Part shown: positions 3,009-26,369 of the stretch, piece by piece
Layout: every line of letters begins with the position of its first letter
Numbering within the stretch: the stretch's first letter is position 1
Source: a virus
DNA: 39,745 nucleotides
Strand: one strand, 5' to 3'
Virus record (IMG/VR): IMGVR_UViG_3300031466_000008
Notes under the pieces: generated by a model
The model's database searches: none
What the model saw: the letters and a program-made list of their open reading frames with translations, nothing else
Told to the model about the DNA's origin: nothing
Translations under genes and position numbers: made by a program

Positions 3009-3436
3009 ATCGTGTAATTCTGATCGGACGCCTGACCAAAGATCCGGAAATGAGATATTCCCCGCAAGGAGTAGCCTGCACTACCTTCGCTCTCGCCGTG
3101 GACCGACCGTTCACGAACGGAAACGGAGAGCGAGAAGCAGACTTCATCTCCATCGTCGTCTGGCGCAAACTGGCCGAGAATTGCGCGGAATATCTCCGAA
3201 AAGGCCGTCTGTGCGCCGTAGAAGGTAGAATCCAGGTGCGGCACTACGACAACAACGAAGGCAAAAGGGTGTACGTGACCGAGGTTGTGGCGGACAATGT
3301 GCGGTTTCTGGAACGGGCGCAAGAGAACAGCGGAAAGCAGAGCAAAAGCAACAACAGCATGAATTTGTACGGTGACGATTCGTTCCGGGGTGACGGGAAG
3401 CCAATTGAGATTTCGGAAGACGATCTGCCGTTTTGA
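3005..3436 (+). CDS. ssb: Single-stranded DNA-binding protein
   Basis: [18 protein letters not shown]...[13 protein letters not shown] is an OB fold, and the acidic C-terminal tip is DDLPF. Confidence 0.95.
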
Positions 3437-3448
3437 TGGGGTGATAGA

Positions 3449-3700
3449 GTGAGAACTATCACTTTCCAAGAATCCGTCCAATTGGTCCAAGAAATCCTAT
3501 CTCAACCCCCCGGAAACTGGACACACCTTCTGAAAGGTAAGCCTGTTCGGGAAGTGGAGCGTTGCATCGTAAGTAGTCATGGGTTTGAGATTGTATTTTT
3601 CCGAGCGGAAGATTATTGCGGACGGTGGAATGCGGATCAATTCGACAAATATGCGGTTCCGTATGTTCCGCCTCCGGAACAACTGGAGATGCAGTTTTGA
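3449..3700 (+). CDS. Hypothetical protein
   Basis: GTG start, fills the gap, no recognisable motif. Confidence 0.55.
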   Translation: MRTITFQESVQLVQEILSQPPGNWTHLLKGKPVREVERCIVSSHGFEIVFFRAEDYCGRWNADQFDKYAVPYVPPPEQLEMQF

Positions 3701-4537: not shown

Positions 4538-5074
4538 ATGAAAAACGTATTCGAGATTCGAGGTGATATAACCACCATAATTCTAAAAAGTCCAAAATAC
4601 GGGATTATGGAAACCTTGATAAGTACAAGCAAACTTGAAAGAGCGATGATGTTTCCTGGAACGTGGGGTGTTGCGAAGAATAAGAGTGGTTTTTATGTAC
4701 AAGGTCAAAGTTATGAAAACGGCAAGGAAAAGACAATTTATCTTCATCGTTTTATTACCAACGCTCCTCCCGGTTATTCTGTCGATCACATTAACCGTAA
4801 CCCACTCGACAATAGGGATGAAAATTTGAGAATTGTGACACATGCAGAGAACTTGCAAAACCAAAAAGTCAGAGTTGACAACAGAACAGGATATCGGGGC
4901 GTTACGTACATGAAGGAATTTAACAAATACCGCGCGAGGATAAGGGTTAACGGTGAATACATCTATTTGGGGTATTACGATACAGCAGAAGAGGCCGCAG
5001 AAGTCGCATCGCAAGCAAGATCGAAAATGATGCCTTTTTCACAAGATGCGAATTACAGAGGGAAAATGGCATGA
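4538..5074 (+). CDS. HNH homing endonuclease with a C-terminal AP2 DNA-binding domain
   Basis: LHRFI...VDHINRNPLDNRDENLRIVTHAENLQN (HNH_3) followed by GYRGVTY...YRARIRVNGEYIYLGYYDTAEEAA (AP2). The gene is visibly AT-richer than its flanks. Confidence 0.9.
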   Translation: MKNVFEIRGDITTIILKSPKYGIMETLISTSKLERAMMFPGTWGVAKNKSGFYVQGQSYENGKEKTIYLHRFITNAPPGYSVDHINRNPLDNRDENLRIVTHAENLQNQKVRVDNRTGYRGVTYMKEFNKYRARIRVNGEYIYLGYYDTAEEAAEVASQARSKMMPFSQDANYRGKMA

Positions 5075-9856: not shown

Positions 9857-10210
9857 ATATCGGTGATTCGCTCGTCTGACGCGCAACAATCGGCGCTAAT
9901 CCTAGGTTCAGACGGGCATCACATATAGCGACATGCGCCGGGTAACAGCAAGGTCAGCGTAAGGCTGGCAGCGTCATTCGGACGTGGGATCCTTGCTCCG
10001 GGGGTCGCAATCGCCGCCACTATATCCCGAAACCATGACCTCTTCGGTCGTGAGGAAATCCTTCCTTCCAGCGTGGGAGTAGGATAGGGAATAGGGCGGT
10101 GAAATCGGTGATTCTCCCGCCACAGACTCGTTTTTCCGTTCGTGTAGACGATGTGACAATTCGGGCGCATTTGTCGCCAGTGGCGGGGATCACATACAGA
10201 ACATACCACA

Positions 10211-10255: not shown

Positions 10256-11302
10256 GTGCAACGCAATTGGACAGATGATGAATACCAATACCTTCTTGAG
10301 TTGATGGAAAGATATCAAGATTGGACATACGCCCAATATGCGGAGGCGCTCGCCCATAGATTCGGGCGTGATTTCACAAGCGAGAGTGTCCGGAAAAAAT
10401 TGAAACGTGCCGGAGACCGGAAGGGTGCAGCGAGCTTCATCGACCGAAAAAACGCCGAGGAACACGATCCGGAAAGACTCTTGTTCGTGATGATCCGCGC
10501 CCAAAAAGAGTTCCAGGAAATCGATGACCGGCAGACGGCCGTGACGATTGACATTCAAGACGATAAGCCGATCGGTATATGCTTCTCGGGTGACTGGCAC
10601 ATCGGGGGATTATACACGGATCACGAGCAGTTGCTTCGAGACAGCGAATTGATCCGAGATACAGACGGTGTGTACAACATCCTCATGGGCGACTACTGCG
10701 ACAACTACATCACGCGTAGTCATGCTGGCGGCTCATTTGAGCAAGTTGTCACGGCAGACAAGCAGCGCGAGCTGTGCGAGTTCTTTTTCGTGCGCTACTA
10801 CAAACGCGGCAATTTGGCGGTACTCAAAGGTAACCACGACAACTGGGAGTACAAAGAAACAGGCGAAGACTTCATCAAGTATTTGGCGCGCCGCATCGAG
10901 TCTCCGTATTTGTGGTACGGCGGCCGGATTACGTTGCGTTTCGGAGATGCGACGTACAGGATCCAGGCGCACCACTCGTACCGGTACAACTCCAGTCTGA
11001 ACACGACGAACAGCCAACGGAACCTGTTCAACGCAACGCATGCGGACATCATCGCTCTGGGGCACGTACATACCAATGAGACGCATGCAAAGACGGTGGG
11101 TGGAATTGACACCGTCTGGATGCGGACGGGCAGCTACAAGATCACGGATGACTATTCTCAATGGCTCGGCGGTCTCAAGAGCGATGCGCGTGTGCCGATG
11201 TGCGTGCTGTTCCCGGATCGGAAGAAAATCGTGGACTTCCGCGATTTTCGAGATGGCATTGAGTATTTGGCGATGAAACGAGCGAATCTAGCGATGGCGT
11301 GA
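10256..11302 (+). CDS. Calcineurin-like metallophosphoesterase with an N-terminal Myb/SANT-like helix bundle
   Basis: GDWH, GDYCDN, GNHD and GHVH motifs in the canonical order. GTG start with an AAGGGGG RBS. Confidence 0.85.
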   Translation: MQRNWTDDEYQYLLELMERYQDWTYAQYAEALAHRFGRDFTSESVRKKLKRAGDRKGAASFIDRKNAEEHDPERLLFVMIRAQKEFQEIDDRQTAVTIDIQDDKPIGICFSGDWHIGGLYTDHEQLLRDSELIRDTDGVYNILMGDYCDNYITRSHAGGSFEQVVTADKQRELCEFFFVRYYKRGNLAVLKGNHDNWEYKETGEDFIKYLARRIESPYLWYGGRITLRFGDATYRIQAHHSYRYNSSLNTTNSQRNLFNATHADIIALGHVHTNETHAKTVGGIDTVWMRTGSYKITDDYSQWLGGLKSDARVPMCVLFPDRKKIVDFRDFRDGIEYLAMKRANLAMA

Positions 11303-14464: not shown

Positions 14465-14866
14465 ATGCCGAGCAAACCGCGCAAACCCTGCAACAAACCG
14501 GGATGCAGGAACCTGACAACGGAACGATACTGCACAGAGCATCAGCACTTGCAGGAAGAGCAAGAACGAGCGCGACACCGGTATTATGACACATACCAAA
14601 GGGACAAGCGGGCAGCAGCGTTTTACAAGTCTGTACCGTGGCGCTTGTTACGTGAGCAGCGATTGATGAAGGATCACGGCCTTTGTCAAATGTGCCTGAA
14701 GGAACAAAGGATCACGCCAGCAACCGAGGTCGACCACATCATACCGATTCGGGTGCGGTGGGATTTGAGGTTGAGGTTGGACAATCTTCAGTCACTTTGT
14801 CATAGGCACCATATGAGTAAGACGGCTGAGGATGCACGAAGACATGAGGTGCCCGGTGGAGGTTGA
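14465..14866 (+). CDS. Terminase-associated HNH endonuclease
   Basis: C..GC...YC..H; GLCQMC; EVDHIIP...L.NLQSLCHRHH. Sits immediately upstream of cos/terS, as in HK97-like cos phages. Confidence 0.9.
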   Translation: MPSKPRKPCNKPGCRNLTTERYCTEHQHLQEEQERARHRYYDTYQRDKRAAAFYKSVPWRLLREQRLMKDHGLCQMCLKEQRITPATEVDHIIPIRVRWDLRLRLDNLQSLCHRHHMSKTAEDARRHEVPGGG

Positions 14867-22342: not shown

Positions 22343-22765
22343 GTGACGGTAAAAGCAACGCGATCCATTGGTACGCAGTTTAAAGTCAACGACATTGTAG
22401 TTGGCGATCTGCGCAGCATTGGCTCGCCGAGTATGACGCAGGAGGAGCTTGACGTAACCACGCTGGACAGCGTTGGCGGGTACCGTGAATTTATCGCAGG
22501 CTTTAAAGACCCGGGGGAAGTGAGCCTCACGGGCTTTTTTGTGCCTGACGATGAAGGTCAAGTCGAACTGTACAACGTGTACGACACTGGCGCACTGGCA
22601 AACTTCGTGATTGAATTCCCGGCATCTATGGGTGCTAAGTGGGAATTTCAAGGTTTCGTCACCGCGTACAGCACTCCGGCTGATTCGGAAGAAGCGGTCG
22701 GGTTCGAGGTTACCATTCGCGTGTCTGGCAAGCCGACGCTGACGCTTCCGACGCCTACGCCTTAA
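22343..22765 (+). CDS. Major tail protein
   Basis: 140 aa, ELDVTTLDSVGGYREFIAGFKDPGEVSL motif. Followed by a hairpin and then the chaperone genes. Confidence 0.85.
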   Translation: MTVKATRSIGTQFKVNDIVVGDLRSIGSPSMTQEELDVTTLDSVGGYREFIAGFKDPGEVSLTGFFVPDDEGQVELYNVYDTGALANFVIEFPASMGAKWEFQGFVTAYSTPADSEEAVGFEVTIRVSGKPTLTLPTPTP

Positions 22766-22823: not shown

Positions 22824-23201
22824 ATGAGTGATGTTGTCGTTCTGAATCTTGACCGCCCGCGTGAACTGCGGTTCGGGCATAAGGCGTTGAAAACACTGAA
22901 ATCCCTGACGGGCATGACACTGCTGGACATTGAAAAACAACTAACGGAAGGTAACCTTGATCCCGATGTCCTTGAAAAAATGGTTTATGCCGGTTTGCAA
23001 CAGGACGCGCGGAACAACGGCGAAAGCCTGACGCTCGAACAGGTGGCCGATCTGCTGGATGAAATACCGGCCTACATCGATATTATCACCGCTGTCGCAC
23101 AAGCGTTTGTGAAGAGTTTCGCGGGCGACAATGCGGGAAACGCGGGGGAGCCGGAAGTTCCGGCGGGGAAAGACGAGAATACGATTTCGACGAAAGTTTA
23201 A
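22824..23201 (+). CDS. Tail assembly chaperone (gpG-like)
   Basis: Position between the major tail and tape measure genes, and acidic composition. Confidence 0.8.
   Translation: MSDVVVLNLDRPRELRFGHKALKTLKSLTGMTLLDIEKQLTEGNLDPDVLEKMVYAGLQQDARNNGESLTLEQVADLLDEIPAYIDIITAVAQAFVKSFAGDNAGNAGEPEVPAGKDENTISTKV
23135..23141 (+). promoter_or_regulatory. Candidate -1 programmed frameshift heptamer G GGA AAC
   Basis: X XXY YYZ in the zero frame of the chaperone gene. The -1 frame is open from 23063 to 23503. Confidence 0.55.
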
Positions 23202-23503
23202 AAGTTGCGTTGCGCTGCGGTCTGAGTATCAGAGACTACGAGTATATGACGCCATACGAGCTTATGCTTGCAGTCGAAGAATACCAGGACCGCATGCGGA
23301 TTGAAAACGAGGCGCGGATCGTACAGGCGTATATGACAGCCGCATGGCAAAGGGCTAAACGAATGCCGAGCCTCAAGAAAGTGTTGCGGGATGTACAGCC
23401 TAAACAGACGAGACAGCAGTCGCCAGAAGAAATGCTGGCTGTAATCATCCAAATGCACAAAGCGCTGGAGAAGGGAGGGGATCGAAATCGCGGTCGTTCG
23501 TAA
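23141..23503 (+). CDS. gpT-like extension of the tail chaperone, expressed as a G-T fusion by a -1 frameshift
   Basis: The -1 frame has no upstream ATG or RBS of its own but reads sensibly (…DFDESLKVALRCGLSIRDYEYMTPYELMLAVEEYQDR…). Confidence 0.65.
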   Translation, partial: RGGAGSSGGERREYDFDESLKVALRCGLSIRDYEYMTPYELMLAVEEYQDRMRIENEARIVQAYMTAAWQRAKRMPSLKKVLRDVQPKQTRQQSPEEMLAVIIQMHKALEKGGDRNRGRS

Positions 23504-23507
23504 TCTG

Positions 23508-24190
23508 ATGGTGCGTGTCGGTGCGGATTTTTCCGAAGCCCGTAGAGGACTTCAAGGTGCAACACGCGAACTGAACCGATTTAAGCGTGACACTGACCGC
23601 ACGGTGCGCGGTATAACCGGCAGAACGGGACTCGGAAAGATTGGCGCAGAATTTACCGATGTGAGCAAATCAATCGTCTCCGCCCTGTCTCAAATCCGGG
23701 GAGCAAAGGGCGTTGGTGGAGTGGCGTCTGCTCTCGGATCGTTACGCCCAGCCCTTTCGAGTGCGGCGGCAGGATTCCTGGGATTAGGTGCGGTGGCTGG
23801 TGGGGCTGCTGCTGCGCTCGGACCGGTTGGCATTGGCCTCGGTGTTTTGACTGCTGCACTTGCTGCGGCAACGGTCGGAATATATCAAGCATCACAAGCT
23901 GCTGTCCAGTACGAGGCCGATCTTGGCCGTTTACAAATGCAGCTGAAAGGCAATACGCGCGAGTTCGTGGATTGGGCGCGGTCTCTGGGACTGGCACGCA
24001 CAACCGCCGTGCAAATGGGGGCAACGTACAGCACGTTGCTCTCGTCGTTTATACGCGACAATGACGAGTTGGCGGAATCCACTAAGCAGCTCTTGCAAAC
24101 GACTCGTGTTGTCGCATCTGCAACTGGTCGGAGCATTGATGACGTAATGGAGCGTATGCGGTCTGGTCTCTTGGGTAATACCGAGGCGAT
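23508..24190 (+). CDS. Tape measure protein, exon 1
   Basis: The TMP-like sequence ends at ...RSGLLGNTEAI. The downstream in-frame stop at 24213-24215 lies inside the intron. Confidence 0.85.
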
Positions 24191-24490
24191 AAATTCTTCT
24201 GTCGCCGCAGCGTAGAAATATGCTGCTAGAAAATCGGGGAAAATCGGTAAAGGCTCAGCACGTCATGGTGGTGCTAATACCGAGGTAACCGGGAACACCA
24301 CCCGGCACCGTAACGCGTAGCGGGTGAGCGTTAAGGGAGCAATAATCCCGCCAAGAGTCCCCGACCCCTAACGTAAAGTCGAGGGTGAAAATGTACGCTG
24401 AACCGGGCTGGAATCGACCGGCAGTAGCCTAATGGCGATGGGGGAAACCCCCGGAAGCAGAAGATAAAAAGCTTCTGCGATAACATAATG
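24191..24490 (+). ncRNA. Group I self-splicing intron (ORF-less, 300 nt)
   Basis: P1 is exon GGCGAT (24185-24190) paired with GTCGCC (24201-24206), with a U.G wobble at the splice site. P10 is TCTTCT (24195-24200) paired with exon 2 AGAAGA (24491-24496). The terminal G is 24490. Removal restores ...NTEAI-EDLGIFVNVSMIEST.... Confidence 0.8.
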
Positions 24491-26369
24491 AGAAGACCTC
24501 GGAATCTTCGTGAACGTCTCCATGATCGAATCGACCAATGCGTTCCGCCGATTCGCAGGTGACAAGAGCTGGGACCAACTCACGTTCCAGCAACAACAGC
24601 AAATCAGGTTGGCTGCGATCCTCGAACAGGCGTATGCGCGGTATGGCGACAAGTTGCAGAACAACGTTATGACCAAACAAGAACGGCTCATGGAGCAGCT
24701 CAAAGACATCAAGCTCAACCTGTCGCAGGCGTTTTTACCAATCTGGGACACCATCCTCCCGGCGCTGACCCGCCTTGCTGAGTGGATCGCTGATGTGACT
24801 GAGCGGATCGCCCGGTTCGCGTACTGGCTGCGCGGGTGGGACTACGACGAGCGGACGCGCGGGATCGACGAGACTACCGATGCAATTCAGGGCGAAGGCG
24901 ATGCATATGACGATCTGGCGGATTCGGCCAAGAAAGCACGAAAAGAAATTGCCGCATTCGACCGGCTGAACCTGATCGGATTCGGCTCCGGCGGCGGAGG
25001 TTCGGGAGGCTCTGGCGGCGGAACCGGCGGCATTGGTCAGCCTGACACACCGGGAGGTGGTAGGGGCGACTGGCAACTCCCCGAACTTCCGTCGATTCCG
25101 CGTCTGCAACTGCAATTTGATCCGCCGAGTCCTCCGGACGCTGGGATCGGTGCCGTTGCAACGGCTGTCGTCAATACGATGACCGCTCTGACTGCACAAA
25201 TTCGCGCACAGTGGCAGCAAACGCTTGAAAATCTGCGGGTGGGAGTTGTCGCCGCTGCTCCGGCAATTGTGACGGCATGGCAAGCGATGCTCTCCGGGGT
25301 GGTGGTCGCCATCCAGTCCGCTATGTCGCAGACGCAGATGACATGGCAGACCGCTCTCTCCGGGATGCTGGAGCGTATCGGAGTGATCCGACCGTCCATC
25401 GCAAACGAATGGAGTCTGATCCAATCAGCCGCCAGGTTGACAATCCCGGTCATGGGTGAAGTTGCTGCGGCATGGACGCAAAAGCTAGCCGAGATGCTGG
25501 CCCGGCTCAAAGCAGCCAGCCCACAGTTCGAAAGCGACTGGTATTTGATCCGTTATGCCGCTCGCCTCACGGTGACGACGGTTGGCGACGTTGCGACCGC
25601 GTGGGGTCAAAAACTCGGCGAGATGCTCTCCACTCTCAAGGTTGCCCGGCCGCAATTTGAGTCCGAGTTGTGGGCGATACGGTACGCTGTGCGCCTCGTG
25701 ATCCCGGCCGTTACAGACACCGAGGACGCGTGGTCGGCAGCGATGCAGGGGATGGCGTCAGCAGCCACGGCCGCCGCCGCGAGCATCGCGTCGGTCATCA
25801 ACGACGCGATTACCGCGATCAATAACCTCCGGTCGGCGATGGAGCTGCCGAAGATCAACCTGCCGAGTGTGTCGATCCCTCAACCGGTGCAAGATTACTT
25901 TTCGCGGACTTTCAGCAAGGAAAACGCGCAGGAGACATGGGATCGATTTGTCGAGAATGTCAAGGGTATCCCGACATCGCTGGAGAGCCAGCTCGCCTTG
26001 ACAATGCTCGGCGGCGGGGCGGTCAAGGGCGGACAAGCAGCGCTGAAGGGTCTCGCCGAATTGCTCAAGCGCGTCGGTATCGCGGTCCCGACCTTTGCAT
26101 CCGGCGCTGTCGTGAGCGGCCCGACGCTCGCGATGGTGGGAGAATACGCGGGGGCGCGGACAAACCCCGAAGTCATCGCTCCGCTGTCGGATCTCGAGTC
26201 GATGCTCGACACCGGCCGCACGAATGATCTTCTCGCGCAGATCCTCCGGGCGATTGAGCGCGGGCAGAACGTCACAGTCACGATCAGCCAGGATGCTGTC
26301 GGCCGGGCTGCTACATCGTACATCAACAGCGAGGCGCGGCGCGGTCGAAACCCGCTACCCACGCTATGA
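24491..26369 (+). CDS. Tape measure protein, exon 2
   Basis: Continues in the same frame with EDLGIFVNVSMIESTNAF...; contains a Gly-rich linker and three 43-aa tandem repeats. Confidence 0.85.

Follow-up and report, generated by a model that had tools for sequence, protein, structure and literature searches.

Why should the tape measure protein (TMP) gene of a phage appear in two pieces? In IMG/VR virus record IMGVR_UViG_3300031466_000008, a stretch of 39,745 nt that we call the window, the open reading frame (ORF) list gives two ORFs in the same frame, at 23508-24215 and 24510-26369. An earlier note on this DNA had read the interval between them as an ORF-less group I intron, with junctions at 24190|24191 and 24490|24491. 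We reach the same placement from the exon-guide pairings P1 and P10 and the terminal G, from covariation, from uninterrupted homologs and from endonuclease-bearing relatives. In all probability, 24191-24490 is a splicing-competent, endonuclease-less group I intron that is passively carried in the TMP gene; we are somewhat less sure of its activity than of its identity. The locus would then be divided as follows:

23508-24190, + strand: TMP exon 1, 227 codons plus two nucleotides of the Ile codon AT|A (ORF list, profiles across the junction, colinear homologs).
24191-24490, + strand: predicted group I intron, 300 nt, no ORF (187 bits with the covariance model R1 over 24229-24492, covariation, uninterrupted homologs).
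24491-26369, + strand: TMP exon 2, the first six bases of which, AGAAGA, form P10 (ORFs, profiles, homologs).

Do the two ORFs make up one protein? Removal of 24191-24490 leaves an open frame of 853 codons, which reads ...LLGNTEAI|EDLGIFVNVSM... over the junction. Compared with PHROGs, the spliced protein matches phrog_1535 over residues 127-578 and phrog_31409 over residues 110-377, each match being unbroken across junction residue 228. The view that a single TMP gene is seen here as two ORFs some 300 nt apart was therefore correct, as the spliced product matches TMP profiles in one stretch. TMP identity needed PHROGs; Pfam gave only a spurious HeLo match on the two half-ORFs. Two further PHROGs families of 'unknown function', phrog_15193 (spliced-TMP residues 121-229) and phrog_31167 (239-338), end and begin, respectively, at the intron site, and look like collections of intron-split TMP halves. 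The insert has stop codons in all three frames, among them an in-frame TAG at 24213-15. No promoter-like or terminator-like sites were found in the insert, consistent with a single transcript over both exons. The GTG at 24510 stands inside the gene, as a Val codon, in more than 20 uninterrupted homologs, so that the 'start' of the second ORF is an artefact of ORF calling.

How does the gene read where no insert is present? The TMP is colinear over the junction, with no copy of the intron motif, in at least 24 homologs, which come from Paenibacillus ginsengarvi, P. sedimenti, a Gorillibacterium metagenome-assembled genome and IMG/VR contigs. The junction peptide LLGNTEAIEDLG[I/V]FV was found in all 13 intron-less alleles that were read there, and in the TMP of locus L057. 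The comparison with intact homologs that the earlier note had asked for thus returns the contiguous junction peptide it had predicted. The L057 TMP, which is about 90% identical to that of the window, reads GCTATTGAAGAC (A-I-E-D) without a break at the window's point of interruption. L057 has a 298-nt intron of its own (1826-2123), 24 nt or 8 codons upstream, where the window in turn is contiguous. The two genes are reciprocal controls, since each is contiguous at the other's intron site.

What defines the ends of the insert? From sequence alone the junction is ambiguous by one base, positions 24191 and 24491 both being A; we set it at 24190|24191 because group I rules place a U at position -1 and a G at the 3' end of the intron. 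The exons would be aligned by three short elements:

24185-24190, + strand: P1 exon strand, GGCGAU; pairs with 24201-24206, the 5' splice-site U (U24190) forming a wobble pair with G24201.
24195-24200, + strand: P10 guide strand, UCUUCU; lies in the loop of P1, immediately 5' to the P1 guide, and is a perfect complement of 24491-24496.
24201-24206, + strand: internal guide sequence, GUCGCC; the intron strand of P1, placed by the P1 pairing.

The coordinates first proposed (GGCGAT, 24185-24190; TCTTCT, 24195-24200; GTCGCC, 24201-24206; G, 24490; AGAAGA, 24491-24496) are all exact, and P1 with its U·G wobble, P10 and the terminal G are present as described. The guide is moreover contiguous over both exon ends: 24195-24206 can pair without a break with 12 bases at the junction of the ligated exons, the U·G wobble counted in. 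A P10 arrangement like that of the window is also seen in Caldibacillus phage CBP1, Arcanobacterium phage TPWB06, L054, L059 and L101. A script recovered P1 and P10, as well as a frame that is open after ligation, in seven relatives (CBP1, TPWB06, L011, L038, L054, L059 and L101). This automatic P1/P10 finder missed many relatives, in which the 5' part lies beyond an inserted ORF, and only eight clean cases were used. The length of 300 nt was correctly given in the earlier note; the significance attached to its being a multiple of three was not upheld. Intron lengths in the family are 254, 288, 298 and 300 nt, and divisibility by three is a coincidence.

Does the insert fold like a group I intron? 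Its RNA fold has an energy of -114.9 kcal/mol (z = -3.9), which none of 100 shuffles equalled. The interior hairpins listed in the earlier note do exist, and can be identified as P2, P5a, P6a, P9c and the final hairpin. The helices come in the order P1, P2, P3, P4, P5, P6, P7, P7.1, P3', P8, P7', P9, which is the order of a group I intron:

24207-24226, + strand: P2 hairpin, GCAGCGUA-GAAA-UAUGCUGC, closed by a GNRA tetraloop; TPWB06 and L057 likewise have a GAAA loop on P2.
24234-24240, + strand: P3 5' strand, UCGGGGA; pairs with 24358-24364, all seven pairs covarying.
24244-24283, + strand: P4 domain; 24244-49 pairs with 24278-83 and encloses the A-rich J4/5, J5/4 and P5/P5a (24253-24274).
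24284-24309, + strand: P6 (GGU/ACC) and P6a (CCGGG/CCCGG); all nine pairs covary in alignment A3.
24313-24319, + strand: P7 5' strand, A-[bulged C]-GCGUA; pairs with 24394-24399 and crosses P3, forming a pseudoknot; presumed guanosine-binding helix.
24320-24351, + strand: P7.1 (GCGGG/CCCGC) with an inner loop or hairpin, between P7 and P3'; 24320-24 pairs with 24347-51, all five pairs covarying in A3.
24358-24364, + strand: P3 3' strand, UCCCCGA, directly preceded by an invariant CCAAGAG.
24366-24385, + strand: P8 hairpin (folding, RNAalifold, covariation).
24386-24399, + strand: J8/7 (UGAAAAUG) and P7 3' strand (UACGCU); the family's most conserved stretch, invariant in alignment A1, which served as search motif.
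24403-24454, + strand: P9 domain, made up of an outer CCG/CGG, P9a, P9b and P9c (GGGG-GAAA-CCCC); compared with CBP1 and other relatives, P9 pairs covarying.
24457-24478, + strand: final hairpin, GCAGAAG-AUAAAAAG-CUUCUGC, with a conserved loop; all six pairs covary.
24479-24490, + strand: 3' tail, GAUAACAUAAUG, ending in the terminal guanosine G24490; GAUAACA is invariant, and the junction is confirmed by homologs.

L2 and L9c are GAAA tetraloops, and both J4/5 and J5/4 are A-rich. The inner hairpin of P7.1 is optional and is present in some family members.

The fold was assessed by covariation in two sequence sets. Alignment A1 comprises 25 ORF-less relatives, on which RNAalifold recovered P3, P4, P5, P6/P6a, P7.1, P8, P9 and the final hairpin, with compensatory change in 34 of 43 pairs. 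P7 was added to this model by hand. With P7 included, 96.7% of pair cells hold standard pairs, compared to 33-46% when the partners are slid by 1-3 columns, and none of 500 shuffles matches the observed pairing values. The outer pair of P7 is A-U in 13 of these relatives and G-C in the other 12. The covariance model R1 finds 108 copies in 100 viral (IMG/VR) contigs. Among 86 distinct sequences, 94.6% of cells are paired, as opposed to 34-47% when slid, and 45 of 49 pairs covary, the P3/P7 pseudoknot included. Here P7 is 99.6% paired and has three covarying pairs, though it is absent from the aligning model; 41 sequences have G-C as its outer pair and 40 have A-U. P7 follows the pattern [A/G]-bulge-GCGUA with UACGC[U/C], its G-C pair being invariant in A1, and guanosine binding is predicted from this sequence pattern. 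P4 shows a U-A to A-U covariation, and the pairs of P5 covary as well. The window carries the consensus base at 104 of the 105 columns that are at least 80% conserved, and its core therefore looks intact. Helix differences between the window and the introns of L011, L062 and L128 are compensatory (GCGGG/CCCGC versus GUGGG/CCCAC and GCAGG/CCUGC), which argues for ongoing selection on the fold. The intron appears to be of subgroup IA type: the extra P7.1 pairing is present, with covariation in all its pairs. P7.1/P7.2 pairings are used in assigning group I classes and have been drawn in a Bacillus cereus-group intron of subgroup IA (PMC3984707, PMC2248736).

How would such an element work? The late transcript would run through the intron, and the guide at 24195-24206 would bind the last bases of exon 1 (P1, with U24190·G24201) and the first bases of exon 2 (P10). 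P7 would hold a free guanosine, which would attack after U24190, the released exon 1 would attack after G24490, and the joined exons would encode one 853-aa TMP, ...NTEAIEDLGI.... The intron would be a selfish element spread by endonuclease-driven homing, as suggested by same-site relatives that carry a GIY-YIG gene in the P5 loop. The window's intron would have lost, or never had, its endonuclease gene, and would be carried passively. We infer both catalysis and neutrality for the phage, taking the mechanism from standard group I chemistry.

Where else does this intron occur? A blastn search of the TMP region against 50,697 phage records returned similarity to unrelated phages in the insert only, not in the exons. 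Introns of the family split the TMP genes of Caldibacillus phage CBP1, Arcanobacterium phage TPWB06 and Streptococcus phage Javan355, and also the genes for DNA polymerase (Alicyclobacillus phage MMB025), large terminase (Clostridium phage CpeS-1181) and a RecD-like helicase (Bacillus phage PJN02). Endonuclease ORFs are found in several relatives: GIY-YIG+NUMOD3 in Javan355 and L128, GIY-YIG in L152 and LAGLIDADG in MMB025. The window's own intron, 300 nt without an ORF, contains no homing endonuclease, as the earlier note had said and as the stops in all frames bear out; nor is there a GIY-YIG gene anywhere in the window.

Three relatives occupy the window's exact site: L011 (300 nt, 98.7% identical), L062 (298 nt, its host TMP having only about 46% identity) and L128, a Paenibacillus ginsengihumi prophage with a 1181-nt intron and a GIY-YIG+NUMOD3 ORF. 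The endonuclease ORF of L128 sits in the P5 loop, at a position where the window has an 18-nt hairpin. In the 50 nt beside the intron, the exons of the window and L011 are 94% and 92% identical, and farther out about 55-65%; for alleles without the intron that have diverged to a similar extent overall, identity in these flanks is 68-84%. The split Ile codon is ATA in all intron-bearing alleles, and ATT or ATC in all 13 intron-less alleles that were read. Flank identity and the ATA pattern fit co-conversion during homing, with the caveat that conservation of the flanks partly reflects the conserved peptide.

Has the intron also moved to new sites? From P3 to P9a, the introns of the window and L057 are about 99% identical in their cores, while P1/P2 is completely different. 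The L057 intron is the same as those of L151 and L153, and occurs in an endonuclease-bearing form in L152 (981-2215). Both TMP sites thus also have a GIY-YIG-bearing form, the two enzymes being 38% identical. Judged by these sequences, the Paenibacillaceae clade shows very recent intron retargeting between two TMP sites 24 nt apart, a clean natural case of retargeting via P1/P2 replacement. A spacing of 24 nt is close to the cleavage offset of I-TevI-type GIY-YIG enzymes. The pattern hints at endonuclease-mediated site shifting between the two TMP sites.

How large is the family? Besides the IMG/VR contigs found with R1, it extends to about 60 species genomes of Bacillota and cyanobacteria. 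The conserved 18-mer TGAAAATGTACGCNGAAC is present in at least 119 IMG/VR contigs, and once in the window. When species genomes (596 Gb) were searched with a 17-base motif, 58 of the 120 matches lacked any other core motif, which is near chance expectation. A spread over many phyla was accordingly rejected as mostly spurious, about half of the matches being due to chance; the true members are Bacillota and some cyanobacteria. Cyanobacterial matches with other core motifs include Chamaesiphon, Calothrix and Prochlorothrix. Seven IMG/VR contigs (L007, L039, L041, L066, L072, L086 and L090) each carry two family introns within a few kb. In L166, a Faecalibacillus contig that also has a family intron, a ROOL RNA (3024-3588, + strand; 316 bits) adjoins three tRNA genes. 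We propose, tentatively and with considerable doubt, that the window's intron is part of a large coherent group I lineage, marked by P7 GCGUA/UACGC and J8/7 UGAAAAUG, that current curated models leave undetected and that has been recently retargeted in the Paenibacillaceae clade.

What speaks against a functional group I intron? The Rfam model RF00028 (Intron_gpI), proposed earlier as a check, has no match in the whole window at the gathering score, nor in 24100-24600 at E <= 10. R1, for its part, has no match in the annotated endolysin intron of Staphylococcus phage Lacachita, which RF00028 scores at 60.9 bits. With no database match, the tie to canonical group I introns is through architecture and splice-site rules. 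Finally, dead copies seem to occur in the family: a deletion in L029 (9045-9248, minus strand) removes P4' and P5, and this copy is probably inactive. All Rfam families were also run against the insert region at E <= 10, and the only match was noise. At the gathering score RF00028 likewise fails to find CBP1 and Javan355, and also about a dozen true members of the family among 18 loci tested. We therefore read its negative result as a limit of model sensitivity, because clear relatives are missed too.

Could the insert be a decayed relic that no longer splices, leaving a TMP pseudogene in a defective prophage or a TMP made as two polypeptides? The absence of an endonuclease ORF would agree with this, as would the existence of a degenerate family member such as L029; the GTG at 24510 could in principle start a second polypeptide, and splicing is here a prediction from sequence. 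We nonetheless consider a relic improbable, given that the window keeps all but one of the strongly conserved core columns and differs from its same-site relatives by compensatory changes. Both exons are open and conserved, the rest of the phage genome looks complete, and the supposed GTG start is an internal codon in the homologs. Two independent TMP genes were considered as well, and rejected. The opposite proposal, put forward in the earlier note, is that the intron has been domesticated rather than being selfish, and that regulated splicing couples tail assembly to host physiology. Group I splicing does require guanosine and Mg2+, and in Clostridioides difficile one ribozyme of group I is known to be allosteric (reviewed in PMC3984707), but nothing at this locus is specific to such a role. 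The intron is missing from most of the close TMP homologs (at least 24 loci), a core like the window's lies in unrelated genes and at the second TMP site 24 nt away, there is no attached domain for sensing a ligand, and family members carry homing endonucleases. Intron-less homologs, unrelated host genes and endonucleases together are what a mobile parasite would show, rather than a conserved regulator. The coupling thus finds no support, the data fitting a selfish, phenotypically neutral element, and we rate it as very improbable.

An element of another kind (group II intron, intein, translational bypass element, or a gene for a small non-coding RNA that separates two genes) is in our estimate barely conceivable. 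In favour of such elements one could cite the high degree of structure in the region and an insert that keeps the frame, its length being divisible by three; the 254-nt and 298-nt relatives are not so divisible, however, and no alternative predicts covarying helices in group I order, a P3/P7 pseudoknot and a guide that pairs with both exons. An intein or read-through is ruled out by the stops in all frames, including the in-frame TAG. Group II introns have a six-domain structure with domain V, and usually a reverse transcriptase ORF. A group II intron is excluded by size (300 nt, as against at least about 600 nt), by the lack of any Rfam group II match and by helices in group I topology. A group I intron that splices and is passively carried in the TMP gene remains, in our judgement, the reading that the locus favours.

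What kind of phage carries the intron? By its gene content, the window looks like a complete temperate siphophage genome of Paenibacillaceae type. Replication genes, RusA, HNH genes and a methyltransferase are followed by the small and large terminase, portal, protease and capsid genes; then come the major tail protein (22343-22765), two chaperone-like ORFs, the split TMP and distal tail genes; and endolysin, serine integrase, CI-like repressor and Erf complete the gene order. Prophages of Paenibacillus and Gorillibacterium are the closest genomic relatives of the TMP. Between the major tail protein and TMP genes, in the position of tail assembly chaperones, lie two small ORFs (22824-23503, + strand), of which the first has its match in a tail-protein family and the second in one of unknown function. 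Free-standing HNH genes are found at 4538-5074 and 14465-14866 (both + strand). The former has an HNH_3+AP2 architecture, typical of intron-encoded or free-standing homing enzymes, and the latter is found a short way upstream of the terminase genes; as neither encodes a GIY-YIG enzyme, they are not of the type cognate to the TMP intron. A DUF3800-VII RNA motif (Rfam RF02967, 67.5 bits) is present at 9926-10015 (+ strand), and the ORF after it (10256-11302) encodes a Metallophos / 'DNA repair exonuclease' protein, not a DUF3800 protein.

What follows from these results? The two 'TMP' ORFs would become one gene, joined at 24190 and 24491, whose 853 aa are the basis for tail-length estimates. The standard Rfam model is blind to the window's intron family, and a dedicated covariance model would mend a recurrent annotation error. 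If the undetected lineage is general, many phage TMP, polymerase, terminase and helicase genes may stand in the records as split or hypothetical ORFs. That group I introns occur in structural genes of phages, the TMP gene among them, is already established; the present find is a well-documented example, not a new principle.

How does the intron compare with known systems? The intron of L128, the prophage of P. ginsengihumi DSM 21568, shares with it the insertion point GGCGAU|AAA ... AAUG|AGAAGA, the guide and the core. It differs in having 1181 nt, with a 243-aa GIY-YIG+NUMOD3 homing endonuclease ORF in the P5 loop. CBP1, TPWB06 and Javan355 are members of the R1 family (120-205 bits), and in all three the TMP is split; CBP1 and TPWB06 also share P1 with U·G, an AAA intron start and P10. 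The records of these three phages give two TMP or hypothetical ORFs, with no intron annotated. They differ from the window in insertion sites and guides, in length (288 nt and 254 nt) and in the GIY-YIG ORF of Javan355.

With classical phage IA introns (T4 td and Twort, represented here by Lacachita), the window's intron shares the helix order from P1 to P10, the P3/P7 pseudoknot, a hairpin between P7 and P3', a bulged base in P7, an A-rich J4/5 and GNRA tetraloops. The Rfam-aligned Lacachita intron has its extra hairpin at the same position as P7.1. P7 is GACUA/UAGUC in Lacachita and the RF00028 consensus, and GCGUA/UACGC in the window, a difference of two swapped pairs; the R1 family and Lacachita-type introns are mutually undetectable with RF00028 and R1. 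The P8 hairpin of the window (24364-24385, ACCCCUAACGUAAAGUCGAGGG) is identical at 22 of 22 positions to the P5 hairpin of the Lacachita endolysin intron (L003, 2001-2022), to which the window's intron is otherwise unrelated, and this shared 22-nt hairpin may be a portable tertiary-contact module.

The earlier note had held an intron in a TMP gene to be uncommon. This is not the case: TMP is the commonest host gene among the annotated relatives that we found, and group I introns of TMP genes were described in 2008 from prophages of the B. cereus group, as TMP-IVS1, IVS2 and IVS3 (Tourasse & Kolsto 2008, PMC2504315). Those introns occupy three sites, belong to subgroups IA1 and IA2, and in some copies lack a complete endonuclease gene; homologous cores have been retargeted to different TMP sites via a changed P1 (PMC2504315). 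Likened by description, the two systems differ in host genus (here a Paenibacillaceae-type phage) and in TMP family (853 aa versus more than 1200 aa). They agree in host gene class, in their residence in Bacillota prophages, in subgroup IA and in the choice of conserved parts of the TMP, and also in the retargeting of a core, as seen between the window and L057.

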